A DNA stretch of 32,000 bases. It comes from Neisseria perflava (GTDB taxonomy: Bacteria > Pseudomonadota > Gammaproteobacteria > Burkholderiales > Neisseriaceae). The stretch spans positions 2,074,637-2,106,636 of the forward strand of contig NZ_CP079818.1 in the NCBI RefSeq assembly GCF_019334725.1, written 5' to 3'. The position numbers and the translations under genes were made by a program. Shown one piece after another: positions 10,601 to 23,599 of the stretch (position 1 is its first letter; every line of letters starts with the position of its first letter). The notes under the pieces were generated by a model. That model worked only from the letters and a program-made list of their open reading frames with translations, did not search any database and had not been told where the DNA came from.

Positions 10601-12463
10601 TTATTGTTTACCCAGTTGGCTGTAATCTACCAACATATACTTGGCAGTAATTTTCTGCGAAGCATTGCCTTCATCGCCCATCAAAATCATTTGAGGCTTG
10701 CCGTTAACGGTAATTGAATCGACGGCTTCAACGTTGGTAATGTGTTGCAGATTAGGCAAAGAGATTTTTTGCGGTTCATCGGTCGGATTACCGCTCCAAG
10801 TCCACAGTTGTGAGAATTTCTGTCCATTCTCATCCTTCACTTCATTAGCGATCACGTAGGTTTTCAAAACAGGATCATAGTTGAGGGAACGGATACCGCC
10901 GCCATCAATATCAATCACGGCCACTTCGTCAAACTCAGGCTTGGCATTGCGCTCAAATACATCTTTCGGATTGCTGATAAACGCGACCAAAGCCATGTTG
11001 TTGAACTCAGGATCACGGAAGCCCAAAACAAGACGTTTTTTCACTGGATCAAACGCCATGCCCTCAATATTGATTTCTTCAAAAGAAACCTCTGCCTTGG
11101 TTCGCTCGCGAATCAAATCATGCAGCTTGTGATCGGTTTCCAAAACCTGCGTCAGATTGTCGTAGCTGGTCAGCCCCAACACATTGCCGTCTTGGATTTT
11201 AAAGCGCATCAGGTGTTCGCGGTCAGGCGATCGGTTGCCTTTACGGGTGCGTGAGTGTGAAGTCATTGCGTAGATAAAGCCTTCATCGTCGCGCGCCAAA
11301 GCCTCCAAGTCGCTGAGACGGCGTTTGAAACCGGTAATCACGCGCGTATCCAATGCCTCGTCTTCTACAAACCTGCCGGTTTTATCAATGCTGATGATAC
11401 TGAATGCATGGTTGGGTTCGTCTTCCGCGATCAGCAACTTACCGTCCGGAAGCTGTTGTACGGCAGAAGGCTCAAATACGCCGTTAAACATATTGATACC
11501 CAGCGAACGCAACTCTGCCGCGTTGTTGGCCGGAGGCATCAGCAATGACGGCAATGTTTTTACGCCGATAAATGCCGCCAGCGAAGCCAGCAAGCCCCAG
11601 CGGAATACCGCGTAAGATAAGTTAATGTATTTGAACTGTTTATCCGCCAACAAACCGAGCCAGTAAAGATGGTCGCTCATCTTTTCATAGATTTGTTTAC
11701 GATCGCCCATAATCTCCTGCATCATTTCCCAATATTGATCTTTTTGCAGTTTCACACGGTCTTCATAAATCAAAATATTGGGTTGGCTGCCGCCAAAAAA
11801 GCGCGTTTCGGTACTACTGAGGCGGGTTTTCAAATCCCGCAGTTTCGAACGGCCGCGGATGAAATCCTTAAACCATGTACGCGCCGCCTGCATTTTACCG
11901 ATACGTTCCGGCGAAGCAGAAAGCAATGCAAACACGATAGATGCTGCGGCAGTAATCATAAACGTACTGGCCGGAATCAAAAATTCGGGCGACGATGAAA
12001 AAATAAACGCGCCCGAAATCATCAGCGCAGAAACAATAAAACCATTCAGCGAAATCATAATATTTGCTTTGGTTGCCGCCAGCGCCAACAATTCCATCTC
12101 CGAGCGTACGGCATTGCGGAACATGGTTTCCACGCCCTTATTCGTACCCAACAGATCAGACGCATTCAAATCCTCGGCTTTATTTTTTTTCTTTTTCGCC
12201 TTGTCTTTTTTGCGTTTGGCCTTCTTCTCGTTTTTTTCAGACGGCATTTCAGGATGTTCAACTACATCCTGACCTTCTACTGCTTCCTGAATTTCTACCG
12301 CGTCAGCCACAACCTCAACTTCGTTTTCAACAACACCGTTTTGCTTGTGATCCCACAAATCAACATCCTGTTGGGATTCTGCAGATGTGCCGTCGTTTAA
12401 AGGTTTGCCTTGGTCGCCCATCTGCTTCTGCCGGCCATTTTCCTTCCAATCATTCAAATCCAT
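10601..12463 (-). CDS. Large membrane protein: charged low-complexity N-terminus, DUF5706/PycTM-like transmembrane module, beta-rich C-terminal domain
   Basis: I prefer the ATG at 12463 (MDLNDWKEN...), which has GGGAG 7 nt upstream, over the GTG at 12487. The Lys-rich run is KKAKRKKDKAKKKKNK. The segment NAVRSEMELLALAATKANIMISLNGFIVSALMISGAFIF...ITAAASIVFALLSASP...DHLYWLGLLADKQFKYINLSYAVFRWGLLASLAAFIG resembles the DUF5706 (Pycsar TM effector) pattern from memory. The C-terminal ~290 aa is soluble and beta-rich (INIEGMAFDP..LVLGFRDP). Confidence 0.6.
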   Translation of the reverse strand: MDLNDWKENGRQKQMGDQGKPLNDGTSAESQQDVDLWDHKQNGVVENEVEVVADAVEIQEAVEGQDVVEHPEMPSEKNEKKAKRKKDKAKKKKNKAEDLNASDLLGTNKGVETMFRNAVRSEMELLALAATKANIMISLNGFIVSALMISGAFIFSSSPEFLIPASTFMITAAASIVFALLSASPERIGKMQAARTWFKDFIRGRSKLRDLKTRLSSTETRFFGGSQPNILIYEDRVKLQKDQYWEMMQEIMGDRKQIYEKMSDHLYWLGLLADKQFKYINLSYAVFRWGLLASLAAFIGVKTLPSLLMPPANNAAELRSLGINMFNGVFEPSAVQQLPDGKLLIAEDEPNHAFSIISIDKTGRFVEDEALDTRVITGFKRRLSDLEALARDDEGFIYAMTSHSRTRKGNRSPDREHLMRFKIQDGNVLGLTSYDNLTQVLETDHKLHDLIRERTKAEVSFEEINIEGMAFDPVKKRLVLGFRDPEFNNMALVAFISNPKDVFERNAKPEFDEVAVIDIDGGGIRSLNYDPVLKTYVIANEVKDENGQKFSQLWTWSGNPTDEPQKISLPNLQHITNVEAVDSITVNGKPQMILMGDEGNASQKITAKYMLVDYSQLGKQ

Positions 12464-12629
12464 ATCATGACTCCCAACATCAAACACTTTGAATTAAATG
12501 GAAAATAAAAAACATATTTAGTTCATTTATTTTAGGTAATTTACATGCCGCTTACATTCTTTAAATACCTAAATAGCAAACTGCCGCAGAACCCCAAAGT
12601 CCTGCGACAATCCGCCTTGCATCAAAATA

Positions 12630-13010: not shown

Positions 13011-13039
13011 AGGCCGTCTGAAAACTGTTCAGACAGCCT
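13011..13039. repeat. Inverted DUS pair (one arm imperfect) in a divergent intergenic region
   Basis: AGGCCGTCTGAA (13011..13022) faces TTCAGACAGCCT (13028..13039). Both neighbouring genes point away from it, so it terminates neither of them. Confidence 0.8.
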
Positions 13040-13145
13040 TTAACCTTAATTATCAAATTTCAAACGTATTGCCCAAGTGTAAATCCGGAGAGTTAGAAAC
13101 AATGAAAAGCCTGCAGCGAATATTCACCCAACAAACGGACAAATC

Positions 13146-13898
13146 ATGAACAAATTTTGCGAAATCACCTTTTGCCAACAAATCGGCAGCAACAAACAGC
13201 ACAACCAAGATGCCCTTTTTAACGGCGAACAAGTGTTTCAATATAAACTCAAAACCGCTGAAACACGTCTTGAAACCCGTCCACGCTTTATCATCGGGAT
13301 AGCCGACGGCATTTCCAATAGCAATCGTCCCGAAAAAGCCAGCAAATCAGCCATGCACCTATTAAGCCATACAACCAAACTCAGCCGTCAAACCATCAAT
13401 CATGTACAAACCGCTTTATCTAAAGAGTTGGCAGAGGATTATTTTGGTTCCTCAACCACTTTTGTTGCCGCCGAAATCGACCAAACCACCGGCAAAACCG
13501 AAATCATCAGCGTAGGCGACAGCCGCGCCTATTTGATTGATACACAAGGAAAATGGAAGCAACTGACCCAAGATCACTCGATACTCTCCGAATTGCTGGA
13601 TGGTTTGTCGGATAAAAAAGAAGAAGGGTTTGCCACCATATATGGCGGCGTTTCTTCTTATCTAGTAGCAGATTATTCCGATTTCCAAGACAAAATGTGC
13701 CATGTCGAGCTTACGCTTAAAGCAGGAGAAAGCCTGCTGCTTTGTTCAGACGGCCTAAGCGACGCTCTTTCAGAAGAAATAAGAGAAAAAATTTGGCAAC
13801 AATATGATAACGATAAGTCCCGTCTGACTGTATTTCGTAAATTAATTGCGAAACAAAGAGTTTATGATGATATGTCGGTAGTAGTTTGCCGATTGTAG
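13146..13898 (+). CDS. PP2C-family Ser/Thr protein phosphatase
   Basis: 250 aa. PP2C motifs appear in order: HNQDA, IGIADGIS, SVGDSRAYL, LLCSDGLSD and YDDMSVVV. It has no Shine-Dalgarno of its own, and its ATG overlaps the stop of a 15-codon upstream ORF. One DUS lies inside the SDGL motif codons. Confidence 0.8.
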   Translation: MNKFCEITFCQQIGSNKQHNQDALFNGEQVFQYKLKTAETRLETRPRFIIGIADGISNSNRPEKASKSAMHLLSHTTKLSRQTINHVQTALSKELAEDYFGSSTTFVAAEIDQTTGKTEIISVGDSRAYLIDTQGKWKQLTQDHSILSELLDGLSDKKEEGFATIYGGVSSYLVADYSDFQDKMCHVELTLKAGESLLLCSDGLSDALSEEIREKIWQQYDNDKSRLTVFRKLIAKQRVYDDMSVVVCRL

Positions 13899-13939
13899 TC
13901 TATAATGTTTACCTATTTTTCATACTAAGGGGTATCTAT

Positions 13940-15256
13940 ATGAGCATAGAAAAAGCAGAAATACTCAAGATTGATGACATATTTAAATTAAATTTGAGTA
14001 TCCCTAATTATCAAAGACCATACAAATGGACAATTAAAAATGTACAACAATTAATCGATGACCTGCTCCAAAATTTTAGAGAGGGGAAAAAAATATATCG
14101 CATCGGCACAATTGTTTTAAATAAGGATAAAGACTGTTCTGAAATATCTGAAATAGTAGATGGCCAACAACGGCTTATTACACTCTCGTTATTGCTTCAT
14201 AAACTGGGGAAGGATGATGTGTCTCTTTTAGAAGAAAAACTGAATCATAGCATCAGCAAAAATAATATTACAACGAACTATAATTTTCTCAAAAACTATA
14301 ATTTCACAAATAAATTTAAGGATTATCTCCTTAACAGGTGTGAAATGGTTTGTATCGAATTAGATGACTTAGATGAGGCTTTTCAATTTTTTGATTCACA
14401 AAATGCCAGAGGCAAACCTTTAGAATCTTATGACCTCTTAAAAGCTTATCATTTAAGAGACATGAGAGATAAAGACGAGAAGGTCATTCACCAATGTGTC
14501 GAACGCTGGGAAAAATCTGCAATGTCTAACGATATAAATAATTTAGATAAAATTATCAACTATATCTTATTTAGACTTCGCCGCTGGCATTATAAAGAGA
14601 ATGCAGAAATATTTACATCAGATGAATTAGATACATTTAAAGGCGTTCATGAAAAAGTTGATTATCCTTACTTACATGGAATATTAGCTACTCATGCCAT
14701 ACAAAAATTATCACATGAAAATCCATTTTTATATCGATCGATATCAGCATTTCAAGCCACACAAGTGCTAATTAATGGAAAATATTTCTTTGATTACATT
14801 GAAAATTATACGGCCATCTATGAAAAACTATTTAAAGAAAAGGATGGGTTGTTAGATAAAATTCATTCTATTAATGGAATTGATTTAGAAAAAGGAGTAA
14901 TGGCTTTTTTAAACAATCATAAATACAGTTATCGAACTGGTGATAAATACATTAGAAATTTATTTGAATGTACCGTATTGTTATACTTTGATAAATTTGG
15001 AGCAAGCCATTTTGAAGAATTTATAACAAAAGCTTTTCTATGGGCTTATCGTACTCGGGTAGAATCTCAGCGTATTACCTTTAAGACCATTGAAAATAAA
15101 GTTCATGATATAGCTGGATTAATTTCTTATATTGAAAAATCCATTACCCCCGAACAAGTCATGCGTTTTATTCAACAAACCGAAAAAGTCAATTTTTCAA
15201 AACATGTAGATCCTAAAATAAAAGAGATTTTGGAAATTAAAGATGAAAACAAATAA
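13940..15256 (+). CDS. DUF262 (ParB-like/GmrS-like) domain protein without a nuclease domain
   Basis: I prefer the ATG at 13940 (MSIEKAEILK...), which has AAGGGG 7 nt upstream, over the track start at 13886. The DUF262 signatures IPNYQRPYKWT and IVDGQQRLITLSLLLH are present. No His-Me/HNH-like motif is seen. The gene is very AT-rich. Confidence 0.8.
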   Translation: MSIEKAEILKIDDIFKLNLSIPNYQRPYKWTIKNVQQLIDDLLQNFREGKKIYRIGTIVLNKDKDCSEISEIVDGQQRLITLSLLLHKLGKDDVSLLEEKLNHSISKNNITTNYNFLKNYNFTNKFKDYLLNRCEMVCIELDDLDEAFQFFDSQNARGKPLESYDLLKAYHLRDMRDKDEKVIHQCVERWEKSAMSNDINNLDKIINYILFRLRRWHYKENAEIFTSDELDTFKGVHEKVDYPYLHGILATHAIQKLSHENPFLYRSISAFQATQVLINGKYFFDYIENYTAIYEKLFKEKDGLLDKIHSINGIDLEKGVMAFLNNHKYSYRTGDKYIRNLFECTVLLYFDKFGASHFEEFITKAFLWAYRTRVESQRITFKTIENKVHDIAGLISYIEKSITPEQVMRFIQQTEKVNFSKHVDPKIKEILEIKDENK

Positions 15257-17207
15257 TAATTACGTAAAAACATTAACCATAAATGAATTATTGAATAAAG
15301 ACAGATATATTATTCCTATTTATCAACGTAATTACGCATGGGGAGATGATGAAATCAGCCTTCTTATCCAAGACCTATGGAATGCATATGAGAAAAATGA
15401 GAAAAATAAGAATAATTATTATATTGGCAGCTTAGTCATTTATAAAAGAGGAAATGGAGATTTAGAAGTCATAGACGGACAACAACGATTGACCACACTG
15501 ACTTTAATCATGCACTACTTAAAATCAATGCACTACTTAAAATCAGATACCTTTGTTAGAAATGTATACTTTGAGCATAGAAATGACTCCGACTATGCCT
15601 TAGGACATCTTGACTCTGACTCCATACCTGATATTTTTAAAAATGCTTTAAAATCAATAAAAAAATATTGGGAAACTGAGAGAACAGAAAAAGAAGGAAG
15701 GTGTTTGGCAGAGTTCTTACAAGAAAACGTTAAAATTATTAGAACCGAAGTACCCAAAGACACCGACCTCAATCATTACTTTGAAATTATGAATACGCGG
15801 GGAGAGCAATTAGAAAAACATGAGATTATCAAGGCTACTTTGATGAAGGTTTTAGACACAGATAGTGAGCGCTCTATTTTTGCCAAAATTTGGGATGCGT
15901 GTTCTGACATGAGCCGATATGTTGTAATGGGAATTAACCCTTCACTTAGAGAAAATATTTTTGGCAAGAATTGGGAAAATACTATCCCAACAAAATTTAA
16001 TGAAATTATTGAGAATATTGCTGATGCAGAAAAGACTCAACATTCAGATACCGGCCCCGCAAATGAAGAACAATCAATTCTTCAATTAATAATAGACGAT
16101 AAGGAGCATCCCCACCCTTCACAGGAAAAAGAAAACGGGCTGACAGATGGGCGTTTTAATTCTGTTATTGATTTCCCTAACTTCTTAATGCATATCTTGA
16201 AAATTTATCTAGAAAAATTTCCTACCGGCATTAACAAAGTTACCTTTAAAAAGATTTCTCTGGATGAAAAAGAACTTTGGCATGCTTTTGACAATGAAGA
16301 CTGGAACAAAGAAAAGATCGTAAATTTCATAGATACATTGCTATCTTGTCGGTATTTATTTGATAAATATATTATTAAATCAAACTCTTTACGCTCAGAA
16401 AATGAGCATTGGTCTTTATGGGAAATTAAAAAAGAAGAATCAAAGAATTATTCCTATAAAAATGTTTTTGGTATCGACAATGGCAATTCCACTGATACTG
16501 AAGAAACCAATGACAAAACTAAGAACGCAATAATGTTGCTTTCTATGTTTCATGTTTCTAATCCATCCCGAATATATAAAAACTGGCTATATGCTACATT
16601 GCGTTGGTTATTCGAGAATAAGAAAAGTATTACTCAAGAAACATATATTCAGTTTCTTGAAAATCTTTGCGATAAATTTTATTTTGAAAACAACTGCAAT
16701 GGAAACAGGGATTTTATGAAAATTATCTTAAATGATAATTACACCATCTCTTCAGTACATAAGACTTGGAATGATGGAGTAAACGTCCCAAATTTTGTAT
16801 TTAATCGATTGGATTATCAATTATGGAAATATCCGGAAAAAGTAGAAGACTTTTCAGACAAGAAACAATCTATCTGGAAAAATTTTAGATTTAGTTTTAG
16901 AAGCTCGGTTGAGCACCATTACCCACAAAATCCCTCTCAAGATTCTCGCCTAGATAAATTAGATACAAATGTCTTAGATAATTTTGGCAATCTTTATTTG
17001 TTATCTCAAAGTAAAAATTCCCGTTTAAGTAATTTACCTCCAAATTTGAAACGGCAGTATTACGAAAAAGAGGTTGCTTATGATAGTTTGAAACAAGCCA
17101 TTATGATGAATTATCCAAACTGGACAGAAAGTGAGATAAAAGATCATGAGGAAAAAATGCTAAAAATCTTAAACGAACCACTGACTGACTCATCGTATCA
17201 ACCATAA
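15243..17207 (+). CDS. GmrSD-like type IV restriction-type protein (N-terminal DUF262, C-terminal DUF1524 His-Me finger nuclease)
   Basis: The DUF262 signatures are IIPIYQRNYAWG and VIDGQQRLTTLTLIMHY. The C-terminal DUF1524-type motifs are SSVEHHYPQNP and LDNFGNLYLLSQSKNSRLSN. It overlaps the upstream gene by 14 nt. The gene is very AT-rich. Confidence 0.85.
   Translation: MKTNNNYVKTLTINELLNKDRYIIPIYQRNYAWGDDEISLLIQDLWNAYEKNEKNKNNYYIGSLVIYKRGNGDLEVIDGQQRLTTLTLIMHYLKSMHYLKSDTFVRNVYFEHRNDSDYALGHLDSDSIPDIFKNALKSIKKYWETERTEKEGRCLAEFLQENVKIIRTEVPKDTDLNHYFEIMNTRGEQLEKHEIIKATLMKVLDTDSERSIFAKIWDACSDMSRYVVMGINPSLRENIFGKNWENTIPTKFNEIIENIADAEKTQHSDTGPANEEQSILQLIIDDKEHPHPSQEKENGLTDGRFNSVIDFPNFLMHILKIYLEKFPTGINKVTFKKISLDEKELWHAFDNEDWNKEKIVNFIDTLLSCRYLFDKYIIKSNSLRSENEHWSLWEIKKEESKNYSYKNVFGIDNGNSTDTEETNDKTKNAIMLLSMFHVSNPSRIYKNWLYATLRWLFENKKSITQETYIQFLENLCDKFYFENNCNGNRDFMKIILNDNYTISSVHKTWNDGVNVPNFVFNRLDYQLWKYPEKVEDFSDKKQSIWKNFRFSFRSSVEHHYPQNPSQDSRLDKLDTNVLDNFGNLYLLSQSKNSRLSNLPPNLKRQYYEKEVAYDSLKQAIMMNYPNWTESEIKDHEEKMLKILNEPLTDSSYQP
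15510..15545 (+). repeat. Perfect 18-bp in-frame tandem duplication inside the GmrSD-like gene
   Basis: ATGCACTACTTAAAATCA occurs twice in tandem (15510..15527 and 15528..15545), encoding MHYLKS-MHYLKS just after the DGQQR helix. Confidence 0.95.
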
Positions 17208-17308
17208 TCGGCACTTAACACATCTCTTCGTCCGTCTATCGGATAATCATTGCATTTATTCGATATGTCATGATACTGTTCAAAAAATATGACTATTAGG
17301 AGTTTCTC

Positions 17309-19051
17309 ATGTCCGAACAACAAAAATTCTTTTCTACCCAAGACGGGACTTCGCTTTTCTACCGCTATCGCCCTGCTGCCGATGGTTCTTTCGATAAAGC
17401 CATTGTGCTGTTTCATCGCGGGCATGAGCATTCCGGCCGGATGATGTTTGTTGCCGATGAGCTGGGTTTCAACGATTTTTCCTATTTTGCTTGGGATGCG
17501 CGTGGTCATGGTTACAGCCCTGGTGAACGTGGCGATAGTCCGAGTATCGGCACTTCGGTTGCAGACGTAGATGATTTTATCCGACACATTCAAAGCGAAT
17601 ACGGCATCAAACCTGAAAACATCTGCGTGATTGCACAAAGTGTCGGAGCGGTATTGGTTTCTACTTGGTTGCACGATTACGCGCCGAAAATCCGTTGCGC
17701 CGTATTGGCTTCGCCTGCGTTCAAAGTCAAACTCTATGTTCCGTTTGCCCGTACCGGTTTGAAAATGATGCAAAAATGGCGTGGCAATTTCTTTGTCAAC
17801 AGCTATGTCAAAGCCCACTATCTGACCCACAATGTCGAACGTCAAAAAAGCTACGACAACGATCCGCTTATTGCCCGCGCTATTTCTGTGCGCATCCTGC
17901 TGGGTTTATATGAAGCGGCCGAACGCGTCGTTGCCGATGCACAAGCGATTACTACGCCTGTACAACTGTTGATTTCAGGCAGCGATTGGGTTGTTCATCA
18001 CAAACCGCAACACGATTTCTACAACCGTTTGGGCAGCCATATTAAAGAACGCCATATCCTGCCCGGTTTCTACCACGACACTTTAGGCGAGCAAAACCGT
18101 GAAATCGCGTTTATCGAAATGCGCCGTTTTATCCGCGAGCGTTTCAATCAGCCTTTGCAACAAGTCGATCTGACTCAAGCGCACTTATTTGGAGACAGCC
18201 GTCGCGAAGCTGACGAACTGGCGACGCCTTTGCCTGTTTGTACGCCTCGCGGCGCATTCTGGGCAATATATCGCGCCTCGCTCAAACTGGGTTCGCGCTG
18301 GAGTGAAGGCTTGAGAATCGGTCAAGAAACAGGTTTTGATTCGGGCAGCACATTGGATTATGTCTACCGCAATCAACCGCAAGGCAGCAATGCTTTCGGT
18401 GTATGGGTGGACAAATACTATCTTAACGCTATCGGCTGGCGCGGCATTCGCCAACGCAAAGTCAATATCGGCAAAGCCATTCAGACGGCCTCAGCCAAAC
18501 TGCGTGAAGCAGGCAAACCGGTACACGTTTTGGATATCGCATCCGGTCATGGCCGCTATGTATTGGATGCCCTGACTGCCGACACATTGCCTAATTCCGT
18601 ACGCTTGCGCGATTACAGTCCGATTAATGTCGAAGCCGGTCGCAAGCTGATTGCCGAGCGCGGCTTACAAGACACGGTTACCTTCAATGAGGTCAATGCC
18701 TATGACCGCGCCAATTATCACGATTTACAGCCGCGTCCTACCCTGGGCATCGTCTCCGGCCTGCACGAATTGTTTGCCGACAATGATTTGATTTTGAACT
18801 CGCTCTACGGCTTTGGAGAAGCCATTGAAACCGGCGGCTACCTGATCTACACCGGCCAGCCGTGGCATCCGCAACTGGAAATGATTGCCCGCGCCCTGAC
18901 CAGCCACAAAGCAGGCAACCCAAACTGGGTAATGCGCCGTCGCAGTCAGCAGGAAATGGATCAGCTGGTTGAAAAAGCCGGTTTTGAAAAAATCCATCAA
19001 TGGATAGACGAAGACGGTATTTTCACCGTGAGCTTGGCAGTGAAGAAATAA
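17309..19051 (+). CDS. Bifunctional alpha/beta hydrolase (lysophospholipase/monoglyceride lipase-like) / class I SAM-dependent methyltransferase
   Basis: AGGAG lies 6 nt upstream of the ATG. The N-terminal half has VLFHRGHEHSGR, ARGHGYSPGERG and the nucleophile elbow AQSVGA. The C-terminal half has SAM motif I, VLDIASGHGRYVLDAL. Confidence 0.8.
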   Translation: MSEQQKFFSTQDGTSLFYRYRPAADGSFDKAIVLFHRGHEHSGRMMFVADELGFNDFSYFAWDARGHGYSPGERGDSPSIGTSVADVDDFIRHIQSEYGIKPENICVIAQSVGAVLVSTWLHDYAPKIRCAVLASPAFKVKLYVPFARTGLKMMQKWRGNFFVNSYVKAHYLTHNVERQKSYDNDPLIARAISVRILLGLYEAAERVVADAQAITTPVQLLISGSDWVVHHKPQHDFYNRLGSHIKERHILPGFYHDTLGEQNREIAFIEMRRFIRERFNQPLQQVDLTQAHLFGDSRREADELATPLPVCTPRGAFWAIYRASLKLGSRWSEGLRIGQETGFDSGSTLDYVYRNQPQGSNAFGVWVDKYYLNAIGWRGIRQRKVNIGKAIQTASAKLREAGKPVHVLDIASGHGRYVLDALTADTLPNSVRLRDYSPINVEAGRKLIAERGLQDTVTFNEVNAYDRANYHDLQPRPTLGIVSGLHELFADNDLILNSLYGFGEAIETGGYLIYTGQPWHPQLEMIARALTSHKAGNPNWVMRRRSQQEMDQLVEKAGFEKIHQWIDEDGIFTVSLAVKK

Positions 19052-19059
19052 AAAAATAA

Positions 19060-19096
19060 AGGCCGTCTGAACAATTCTTTAACTTTCAGACGGCCT
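19060..19096 (+). terminator. Inverted DUS pair (terminator or attenuator) between co-directional lipid-cluster genes
   Basis: AGGCCGTCTGAA (19060..19071) and TTCAGACGGCCT (19085..19096). Confidence 0.55.
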
Positions 19097-19106
19097 TATT
19101 TAAACC

Positions 19107-20405
19107 ATGTACCTATCCATGAAACCCTCCCTAAAAACCTCCCTGCTCAAGCTGATTTTAGTTGGCGCACTGTTCTACACCAGCTACGGCCTATCCAACC
19201 ATTACGCGGCGTCGCTGGACTATGTGCCTGAAATCGCTTTTACATGGGAGAGCAATATTCCGTTTTGGGCATGGACGATTGTGCCTTATTGGTCGCTAAA
19301 CCTGATGTATACCGCGGCATTTTTTCTTTGCCGTGATACACATGAACAAAACCGATATGTAGCGCACCTTGTAGCCGCCCAACTGATTGCAACTGTTTGC
19401 TTTGTACTGTTTCCGCTGCGTTTCGGGTGGCCTAAACCGCCTGCCGATGGGCTGTCAGGCTGGCTGTTTGATTCATTGGCTGCATTTGATTTGCCGTACA
19501 ACCAAGCGCCATCTTTGCATATCGCGTTGGCGATTATCGTGGGTGCATTTTATTGGACGCGCTTTCCCAAAATCCGCCTGCCGCTTTTCTTATGGCAAAG
19601 CCTGATTGCCTTGTCGGTACTGACGACTTATCAACATCATTTTATTGACGTGCCGACCGGAGCATTGCTTGGCTGGCTGGTGTTGTGGGCTTTCCCGCGT
19701 CAGATGACTTCGCCGTTAAAACTGGGCTCGATTAATGTACACTCAAGAAAGATTGCGTTGCTGTATTTGCTTGGCGCGTATTTGATGGCTTTGCCTGCGC
19801 TGCTGGGTGGTGTGTGGCTGTGGTTGATATGGATTAGCGTGTCTTTGCTGATGGTGGCCTTTGCCTATTTGACTGGGAATGCAAACATATTCCAAAAACA
19901 GGCTAACGGTAAATTATCGGCGGCAGCGACGGTTTTACTATTGCCTTATCTGGTGGGCGTACGGCTAAACATGGCGTATTGGTTACGCGGTAAGGCGAAA
20001 ACGGCACAAGTCCGCCATGATGTATGGATTGGCAGCGTTTTGGGAATTTCAAACCATCTGCCTGCCGTATTGGATGTATGCGCCGAATATCCCTGCCGTA
20101 GCTATCAAGGAGAATATCGCTCCCTACCTTTACTGGATATGGTAACGCCGTCTGAAAACGATTTGGTTCAGACGGCCTTGATATTGGAAACCTTGCGCCA
20201 AAAACACGGCAAAGTGCTGATATGCTGCGCTTTGGGTTATGGAAGAAGTGCCGCAGTGGTGCTGACGTGGCTGCTGGTCTATGGTGGCTGCAAAGACTTG
20301 GCACAAGCGAAGGCCGAACTCAAACAGGCTCGGCCGCAAATGGTATTATCGCCGGCCACTGCCCAAGCAGTCGAAGCTGCGGCCAACCGTTTAAAACAAG
20401 GATAA
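19107..20405 (+). CDS. Fusion of a PAP2-like membrane domain (sphingomyelin-synthase-like PAP2_C motifs) and a dual-specificity phosphatase domain
   Basis: The protein is 432 aa with about 8 hydrophobic helices. The motifs PSLHIALA and YQHHFIDVPTGALLGW resemble the SGH and H-x3-D-V motifs of PAP2_C/SMS-type enzymes. The C-terminal CX5R P-loop is LICCALGYGRSAAV. An alternative start exists at 19119. Confidence 0.75.
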   Translation: MYLSMKPSLKTSLLKLILVGALFYTSYGLSNHYAASLDYVPEIAFTWESNIPFWAWTIVPYWSLNLMYTAAFFLCRDTHEQNRYVAHLVAAQLIATVCFVLFPLRFGWPKPPADGLSGWLFDSLAAFDLPYNQAPSLHIALAIIVGAFYWTRFPKIRLPLFLWQSLIALSVLTTYQHHFIDVPTGALLGWLVLWAFPRQMTSPLKLGSINVHSRKIALLYLLGAYLMALPALLGGVWLWLIWISVSLLMVAFAYLTGNANIFQKQANGKLSAAATVLLLPYLVGVRLNMAYWLRGKAKTAQVRHDVWIGSVLGISNHLPAVLDVCAEYPCRSYQGEYRSLPLLDMVTPSENDLVQTALILETLRQKHGKVLICCALGYGRSAAVVLTWLLVYGGCKDLAQAKAELKQARPQMVLSPATAQAVEAAANRLKQG

Positions 20406-23318: not shown

Positions 23319-23493
23319 TTTTTCATTTTTCTATCGGTATTATTGTAAAAATTAATAAATGCGATAGTTAAAAACATAAGCTGATTTTGAAACAAAATCC
23401 GTCATCAAAATTTTAAGCACATGAAATATATAAAAAACAACATCTGTTAAGGTTTTGTAAACAATATGCCTACGTCAACCTGAATTTTTCGAT

Positions 23494-23535
23494 TTGATTT
23501 AAGTCAGCATATCTTGTGTCATTAATCCATAAAAT
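23494..23535 (+). promoter_or_regulatory. Candidate class II FNR-dependent promoter of ubiUVT
   Basis: TTGAT-TTAA-GTCAG (23494..23507) matches the TTGAT-N4-ATCAA consensus at 8 of 10 positions. TAAAAT at 23530..23535 falls exactly at -12..-7 if the box is centred at -41.5. The predicted leader is about 58 nt. Confidence 0.4.
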
Positions 23536-23599
23536 ATTCGGAATTCTACAAAATATTGATTAACCCGATAGAGGTTATCATCAAGACGAGGAACACAAA

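Follow-up and report, generated by a model that had tools for sequence, protein, structure and literature searches.

The locus considered here raises the question of whether a phosphatase gene and the two nuclease-related genes directly behind it form one three-gene system or came to lie side by side in another way. It is located in a stretch of 32,000 nucleotides of Neisseria perflava (NCBI RefSeq assembly GCF_019334725.1, contig NZ_CP079818.1, positions 2,074,637 to 2,106,636), referred to below as the window, and consists of a gene for a PP2C-family phosphatase followed by a low-GC (guanine plus cytosine) islet with a pair of genes for DUF262 proteins, named here tgvA-like and tgvB-like. 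An earlier note on this DNA had proposed a new three-gene module, in which the phosphatase modulates or acts as a decoy for a GmrSD-like nuclease, and as a fallback the insertion of the islet beside a resident PP2C gene. We consider it probable, with moderate confidence, that the pair is a type IV restriction system of the TgvAB type and that the PP2C gene is the border gene of a Pasteurellaceae slot which was transferred along with it, the pair being lost later in many strains. An obligate module of PP2C and two DUF262 proteins is unlikely, because the PP2C gene is also maintained where the pair is missing, and the pair where the PP2C gene is missing.

The three genes are located on the same strand (Table 1), with a spacer of 41 nt between the PP2C and the tgvA-like gene and an overlap of 14 nt between the tgvA-like and the tgvB-like gene. 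Coordinates and lengths of the open reading frames (ORFs), the spacer and the overlap were exactly as the earlier note had given them; its family calls (DUF262, DUF1524 and PP2C) were borne out by Pfam, and all motifs which it had quoted were located, DGQQR in both DUF262 proteins and the His-Me finger motifs in the second only. The PP2C protein scored over the cut-offs of Pfam PP2C_2, SpoIIE and PP2C. The tgvA-like protein matched GmrSD_N (DUF262, 112 bits) and DUF7834 (198 bits) and had no DUF1524, and the tgvB-like protein matched GmrSD_N (117 bits) and GmrSD_C (DUF1524, 52 bits). DUF262 and DUF1524 in one polypeptide, the combination which marks the GmrSD family, are thus found in the tgvB-like and not in the tgvA-like protein. 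Residues E557-H558, N583, N592 and N597 of the tgvB-like protein were invariant in the protein alignment, and profile comparison with hhalign confined the homology between the two proteins of the pair to the DUF262 domain. The PP2C and tgvA-like protein sequences were identical to entries in NCBI records of the Neisseria perflava/subflava group. A fusion of PP2C and TgvA was considered as the source of TgvA-cluster members of 648-656 amino acids (aa) and rejected; these members are TgvB-like proteins.

Table 1. Positions of the genes, motifs and segments of the locus, numbered from the first letter of the window.
Feature	Position	Strand	Description	Basis
Block colinear with Haemophilus parainfluenzae	13129-17042	+	PP2C, tgvA-like and most of tgvB-like gene; 71.4% identity over 3956 columns to L001 7984-11801	blastn
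PP2C gene	13146-13898	+	250 aa; PP2C-family Ser/Thr phosphatase	Pfam and subfamily alignment
AG-DUS within the PP2C gene	13745-13756	-	lies on codons encoding the invariant catalytic motif CSDGL	DUS scan
Presence/absence segment	13889-17245		last 10 nt of the PP2C gene, spacer, both DUF262 genes and 38 nt beyond	blastn break points
tgvA-like gene	13940-15256	+	438 aa from ATG; DUF262 and DUF7834, without nuclease domain	Pfam
DGQQR of tgvA-like protein	14159-14173		residues 74-78	
tgvB-like gene	15243-17207	+	654 aa; DUF262 and DUF1524 His-Me finger	Pfam
DGQQR of tgvB-like protein	15474-15488		residues 78-82	
In-frame 18-nt tandem duplication in tgvB-like gene	15510-15545	+	MHYLKS MHYLKS, just after DGQQR; missing from most Neisseria orthologues	
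His-Me motif VEHHYPQN of tgvB-like protein	16908-16931			
His-Me motif GNLYLLSQSKNSRLSN of tgvB-like protein	16986-17033		GNLYLL..N..N	

TgvAB (VC1767/VC1766), located on VPI-2 of Vibrio cholerae, is a two-protein type IV restriction system of the GmrSD family, in which TgvA has DUF262 only and TgvB has DUF262 and DUF1524 (bioRxiv 10.1101/2024.04.05.588314; PMC11411939). Defence by TgvAB needs both proteins and restricts T-even phages through glucosylated 5-hydroxymethylcytosine (5hmC); the DGQQR of both proteins as well as the TgvB His-Me residues H571 and N602 are required, and the V. cholerae system functions in Escherichia coli as two genes (2024 TgvAB papers). The query sequences for our comparison were the first 399 residues each of V. 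cholerae TgvA and TgvB from Table S5 of PMC11411939. V. cholerae TgvA was found to have the same architecture of GmrSD_N and DUF7834 (132 bits) as the window protein. In BLASTP the tgvA-like protein was 30% identical to TgvA, and the tgvB-like protein was 28% identical to TgvB across residues 21-377. The motif suggests that the His and Asn of the tgvB-like protein are equivalent to H571 and N602, TgvB itself having been compared over its first 399 residues. Moreover, hit 316 in the same Table S5 is a Neisseria flavescens pair (QCL69238.1/QCL69239.1) which is 90% and 87% identical to the tgvA-like and tgvB-like proteins, respectively. Judged by these matches, the window pair is an already catalogued homologue of TgvAB, and the nuclease-less DUF262 partner, which the earlier note had thought unusual, is the published arrangement. 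Pfam and the TgvAB homology also support the reading of the pair as GmrSD-like type IV restriction.

Comparison with other models added little to this assignment. No full-length match to any PADLOC defence system model was obtained; the tgvB-like N-terminal domain matched HEC-06 and SspE, the HEC-06, SspE and Orf5 matches spanning just the first ~100 residues, and PP2C matched PDC-M21C at E=9e-4, so that the PADLOC check proposed earlier gave partial matches at the N-terminus. No solved structure was found by sequence search. In the AlphaFold2 model of the tgvA-like protein the pLDDT averaged 63 and was below 50 for residues 172-287; the best Foldseek match of this model in the PDB was a weak one to SspE (E 2.7e-3, TM-score 0.26), and its N-terminal domain gave sulfiredoxin/ParB-like matches. 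Scans for promoters and terminators gave no excess of sites and no scored site inside the spacer between the PP2C and the tgvA-like gene, in which a perfect TATAAT without a scored -35 element is visible by eye at 13901-13906.

The composition of the islet is that of foreign DNA. The GC content of the presence/absence segment (Table 1) was 0.313, compared with 0.430 for the PP2C gene and 0.467 for the remaining window, and no other 3.4-kb stretch of the window had a GC content below 0.414, which agrees with the low-GC islet described previously. The window contains 33 cores of the DNA uptake sequence (DUS), mostly of the AG-DUS dialect; the interval from 13757 to 18479 is free of them, as had also been noted before. 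The chance of finding no DUS in the islet alone is ~0.02. The largest-gap statistic is weak, and the DUS gap is merely supportive of foreign origin, because 16.5% of random DUS placements yield a gap of equal length. The low-GC 3' tail of the PP2C gene, to which the earlier note had drawn attention at the edge of the islet, is real; it is not a junction signal, because it is also found in the Neisseria alleles without the pair and in Haemophilus. The GC content of the pair is ~30% in every host, and that of the PP2C gene follows the host more closely. The islet DNA is horizontally acquired and foreign in origin; that it was recent, as had been proposed, does not hold, as described below.

A codon comparison showed that the DUS within the PP2C gene arises via four synonymous differences from Haemophilus. 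Each host has its own uptake sequence inside the PP2C gene, DUS in Neisseria and the uptake signal sequence (USS) in Haemophilus (at L001 8135), and the TgvAB-like pair has no uptake sequence in either. Approximately 100 nt upstream of the PP2C gene, at 13011-13045, lies a DUS with an imperfect inverted copy behind it (aggccgtctgaaaactgttcagacagcct); the arrangement has a terminator-like shape and is located at the left edge of the PP2C locus.

The nearest relatives of all three proteins outside Neisseria were found in the Pasteurellaceae. The alignment with Haemophilus parainfluenzae (Table 1) spans the spacer between the PP2C and the tgvA-like gene and begins 17 nt upstream of the PP2C gene, inside the 3' end of the Haemophilus sirtuin gene. 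Protein identity to Haemophilus was 76% for PP2C, 69% for the tgvA-like and 60% for the tgvB-like protein, and synonymous divergence (dS) between Neisseria and Haemophilus was 1.4-1.8 for all three genes. Most likely, the PP2C gene arrived together with the pair from Haemophilus-like bacteria, as border gene of a Pasteurellaceae defence slot; the comparison suggests this direction as well as this unit of transfer.

In Haemophilus the genes stand in the order FtsK-gamma (66 aa), sirtuin (281 aa, with its end adjoining the start of PP2C), PP2C, TgvA-like, TgvB-like and a 683-aa double AAA+ ATPase with IetA-like matches. A metagenome scan with the subfamily motif NQDALFNG yielded 120 loci, and the contents of the slot were counted in 41 Haemophilus-type loci with a full PP2C gene and enough downstream sequence. 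TgvAB-type pairs in several alleles, 44-71% identical to the window TgvA-like protein, occupied the slot in 18 of these 41 loci; the others held a PDDEXK_4 nuclease (9), a single GmrSD or other DUF262 protein (7), a DUF1643 protein (4) or an Mrr_cat nuclease (3). The slot was occupied in all 41 loci, and every cassette was located between the PP2C gene and the AAA ATPase gene. Slot DNA of eight loci with non-TgvAB cassettes had a GC content of 27-32%, and several cassette types were found with both PP2C allele classes. The PP2C gene is therefore the fixed left border of the slot and not a TgvAB-specific partner, since the cassettes vary and are not tied to the PP2C allele. In Neisseria, 'minimal mobile elements' are known in which alternative cassettes are swapped between conserved flanking genes, and cassette exchange at the Haemophilus slot plausibly takes place via transformation and flank homology. 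Farther upstream, the Haemophilus-type loci (L001-L006, L021, L113-L232) carry a cluster of WYL, NT5C, sirtuin and OGFr_N genes. In the literature we found no description of the frame of FtsK-gamma, sirtuin, PP2C and AAA ATPase as a defence system.

In Neisseria the locus is flanked by a PepSY/PycTM gene pair on one side and by a hydrolase-methyltransferase gene on the other, and two allele states were observed. Four loci (L015-L018) carry PP2C and the pair at 92-94% nucleotide identity to the window, and L007-L014 carry PP2C alone. In all 16 of 16 pair-less loci, homology to the window ends at 13888, 10 bases before the PP2C stop, and restarts at 17246, with an identical 93-bp filler in between, which did not detectably resemble the islet or any of the Haemophilus cassettes. 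The PP2C of these loci loses its last three codons and runs 16 codons into the filler, giving a protein of 266 aa with an open frame, while the window protein ends at residue 250, as do the Haemophilus protein and most of the subfamily. In L015-L018 the PP2C gene has a premature stop seven codons before its end, beside an intact pair. The dS values between the window and L015 were 0.19 for PP2C, 0.20 for tgvA-like and 0.16 for tgvB-like, compared with 0.165 for the flanking hydrolase gene. The islet is thus as old as the split of the strains and not recent, because within Neisseria its synonymous sites have diverged as much as those of the flanking core gene. The pair-less PP2C had a dS of 0.05 to the window allele and 0.19 to L015, so that it is nested beside the window allele and not outside the pair-bearing ones. 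We read this pattern as loss of the pair via a single replacement event that then spread, and not as insertion beside a resident gene. Between strains, the tgvB-like protein showed 86% amino-acid identity and a ratio of non-synonymous to synonymous divergence (omega) of 0.37-0.39; over long distances the omega of the pair was 0.14-0.17, and that of PP2C was 0.08-0.2.

The PP2C gene belongs to a tiny subfamily, of which only 14 cluster representatives were recovered at E<1e-30 from 1.84 billion proteins. The metal-binding residues of the window protein are intact (D22, D54-G55, G124/S126, D143-H144, D202-G203 and D241); D22, D54, D202 and D241 are invariant in the subfamily alignment, as are the catalytic residues. 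The subfamily profile matched the solved bacterial PP2Cs tPphA/Stp1/PstP at E ~1e-21, and the window protein is not an Stp1/IreP equivalog (75 bits vs a cut-off of 230). A contig scan with the PP2C alignment, based on a generic PPM peptide pattern, gave five true members among the 80 loci listed as matches, none of them from Neisseria; a profile-based homologue search was dominated by almost identical variants from H. parainfluenzae and brought up no distant members. In the phage collection neither a member of the PP2C subfamily nor a tgvA-like gene was found.

The subfamily and the pair occur separately in several lineages. In Aggregatibacter (A. actinomycetemcomitans) the pair is intact, the PP2C gene in front of it is frameshifted and truncated, and ATPase fragments lie behind. 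In Actinobacillus a bona fide sirtuin gene overlaps PP2C and no DUF262 gene is present. Among 887 plasmid records with TgvA-like genes, mostly from Klebsiella, none carries a PP2C of the subfamily. Subfamily members without a nuclease neighbour were found in L105, L023 and L233, the last of which encodes a PP2C 37% identical to the window protein in the order WYL, Nmad2, Nmad3, OGFr_N, PP2C and double AAA ATPase, with the slot empty. In its strict form, the three-gene module suggested in the earlier note is not supported, given this independence of the parts and the five other cassette contexts in Haemophilus.

Adjacency of the PP2C gene to nucleases nevertheless recurs. On Pelistega-like contigs (L108-L110) a PP2C with 39% identity in BLASTP (41% in the cluster search) lies directly after rpoC and is followed, after 12 nt, by a protein with GmrSD_N and GmrSD_C (657 aa) and one with GmrSD_N (829 aa); this pair resembles the window pair in the DUF262 domain only and is otherwise unrelated. 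L151 has an FtsK-gamma-like protein, a PP2C (37% identity to the window) and a PDDEXK_4 nuclease; L235 has WYL, a PP2C (35%) and two unknown proteins, one of them weakly UDG-like (uracil-DNA glycosylase); and in L234 a PP2C occurs with a weak GmrSD_C fragment. Further members have sirtuin or ftsK upstream, on contigs too short beyond. In the metagenome contig L102 a PP2C relative (45% identity) stands directly after a full-length ftsK gene, and the free-standing 66-aa FtsK-gamma gene before sirtuin and PP2C in Haemophilus may be a carried-over 3' end of ftsK. The proposed link of PP2C to the nuclease is partly right, insofar as the adjacency is non-random and recurs in distant lineages. No publication describing an association of this PP2C subfamily with nucleases was found in the literature, nor anything relevant on DUF7834, on Nmad2/Nmad3/OGFr, or on PP2C with SIR2 and WYL.

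According to the explanation which we favour, and which draws on the analogy with V. cholerae TgvAB, recognition of hypermodified DNA would require both DUF262 domains, which are ParB/sulfiredoxin-like and NTP-binding and carry DGQQR. Cleavage of this DNA would fall to the DUF1524 His-Me finger of the tgvB-like protein, and the tgvA-like protein with its DUF262 and DUF7834 domains would be an obligatory non-catalytic partner. The PP2C protein would not be a dedicated third subunit; its gene would represent the conserved left border of a Pasteurellaceae slot with the order FtsK-gamma, sirtuin, PP2C, cassette and double AAA+ ATPase. This border gene and one cassette would have been transferred long ago into the lineage of N. 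subflava, N. flavescens and N. perflava, where they diverged along with the core genome, and PP2C would have gained its DUS after arrival. A later single replacement may then have eliminated the pair from many strains, in which the C-terminal tail of PP2C is now of foreign origin.

Several points weigh against this explanation. The substrate and the two-protein requirement are extrapolated from TgvAB at 28-30% identity, and dS between the genera is near saturation, which makes the argument from equal age weak. The pair-less allele, with ~78 nt of filler, is a replacement and not a clean deletion, and polarity is argued indirectly. The GC content at third codon positions (GC3) of PP2C is 0.43 in Neisseria vs 0.30 in Haemophilus, and that of the pair is 0.24-0.30 vs 0.21-0.22; this unequal rise could mean different residence times. 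Finally, distant PP2C relatives (32-41% identity) again adjoin such enzymes in unrelated neighbourhoods, for example in Pelistega and L151, and this recurrence, which goes beyond what simple linkage predicts, is not easily explained by passive linkage.

The last point leads to an alternative which we regard as unlikely, namely that PP2C is a functional accessory of the adjoining modification-dependent nuclease or glycosylase, which it might shield from phage kinases, gate, or assist by dephosphorylating a phage DNA-modification intermediate, the Neisseria trio being a minimal modular system. Points in its favour are the recurrence of so small a subfamily beside such enzymes in differing flanks (the Haemophilus slot, the Pelistega-like contigs, L151, L235 and L234), the invariant catalytic residues and low omega of PP2C, and its position on the same strand as the pair across a short spacer without a terminator-like site. 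Against it, PP2C and the pair are each lost without the other, the prematurely stopped PP2C of L015-L018 stands beside an intact pair, the plasmid-borne TgvA-like genes lack this PP2C, V. cholerae TgvAB works in E. coli without a third gene, PP2C allele and cassette type are not tied, and L105, L023 and L233 have no nuclease neighbour. Moreover, no kinase domain was found among the called genes of the related loci, including the orthologous flanks of PP2C and the pair (the whole 32-kb window was not scanned for kinases). A broader version, to which we give a low probability, sees in the PP2C subfamily the fixed component of a modular anti-phage locus, in which interchangeable effectors against modified DNA (the TgvAB pair, single GmrSD, Mrr, PD-(D/E)XK and UDG-like proteins) are actively supported or controlled by the phosphatase, often together with an FtsK-gamma winged-helix protein, a sirtuin and a double AAA+ ATPase; the Neisseria trio would again be a minimal form.

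That PP2C was resident in Neisseria and the DUF262 pair inserted beside it later by chance, the fallback of the earlier note, appears very improbable. Most Neisseria sequences in the PP2C cluster are indeed of the pair-less type (1461 members, with a representative of 265 aa), and the gene carries a DUS and has a higher GC content than the pair. However, junction, spacer and gene order are the same in Haemophilus and Aggregatibacter at ~70% nucleotide identity, the native 250-aa C-terminus is found in the pair-bearing allele only, the closest relatives outside the genus are Pasteurellaceae genes, and the DUS requires just four synonymous changes on a conserved motif. The two pair-bearing alleles (window and L015) are deeply diverged, and the pair-less PP2C is nested by that of the window. 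Also very improbable, in our judgement, is that the pair no longer serves as phage defence in Neisseria, its main role now being to block or filter transforming DNA with foreign base modifications, or that it persists as a remnant, selfish or in decay. Natural competence and many DUS are features of the host, the locus is polymorphic for presence and absence, and the tgvB-like protein evolves fast and contains an in-frame duplication; but both ORFs are intact with all catalytic motifs present, omega over long distances is low, and type IV enzymes of the GmrSD family are established anti-phage systems.

Other polymorphisms were observed in the window. A gene at 10601-12487 on the minus strand encodes a 628-aa protein whose orthologue has Pfam PycTM, the transmembrane domain of Pycsar effectors; the PycTM-type gene is broken into pieces in the pair-bearing L015-L018, in which window 11491-11868 is missing. 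A second presence/absence polymorphism concerns a 2.3-kb segment at 23341-25687 with two U32-peptidase-like genes, presumably ubiU/ubiV, which is replaced by 58 bp in L007, L009, L011 and L012 and, in L008, L010 and L013, by a sequence of comparably small length. At window 19096-19116, L008, L010 and L013 carry an additional 0.9-kb insert with a 195-aa ORF.

With this locus the TgvAB class gains an example from a commensal Neisseria, and a defence cassette is seen to have moved, with a border gene dragged along, between two bacteria that inhabit the human mouth and throat and are both naturally competent. The Haemophilus slot, a single position at which five or more kinds of modification-dependent nucleases alternate while the flanks stay the same, represents a compact natural system for cassette exchange and allows asking if the phosphatase, sirtuin and ATPase beside it contribute to defence. 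Should they contribute, a kinase-less PP2C would be added to the defence toolkit.

Compared with known systems, the window pair shares with TgvAB the adjacent, overlapping genes, the succession of DUF262 plus DUF7834 and DUF262 plus DUF1524, the DGQQR in both proteins and the His-Me H and N residues in the second; it differs in its low sequence identity, in the PP2C gene in front and in not being located inside a type I restriction-modification (R-M) operon. The tgvB-like protein has the fused layout of DUF262, linker and DUF1524 and the motifs of Eco94GmrSD, BrxU, SspE and HEC-06, but those act alone or with BREX/Ssp, whereas the window has an additional DUF262-only partner. KKP, a prophage defence and lysogeny module, consists of the PP2C phosphatase PfpC and the kinases PfkA/PfkB (PMC11341870); it resembles the present locus in having a PP2C-family phosphatase in an anti-phage context, but is defined by two Ser/Thr kinases adjoining the phosphatase, which the related loci lack among their called genes. 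Defence genes are also found embedded in Hma and type I R-M systems, with GmrSD-like genes as typical cargo (bioRxiv 10.1101/2024.01.29.577857), and the PP2C slot likewise has conserved flanks with alternative cassettes. Its frame is a different one, however, with FtsK-gamma, sirtuin and PP2C on one side and the IetA-like double AAA ATPase on the other, and of this frame only the left gene, PP2C, was carried over into Neisseria.

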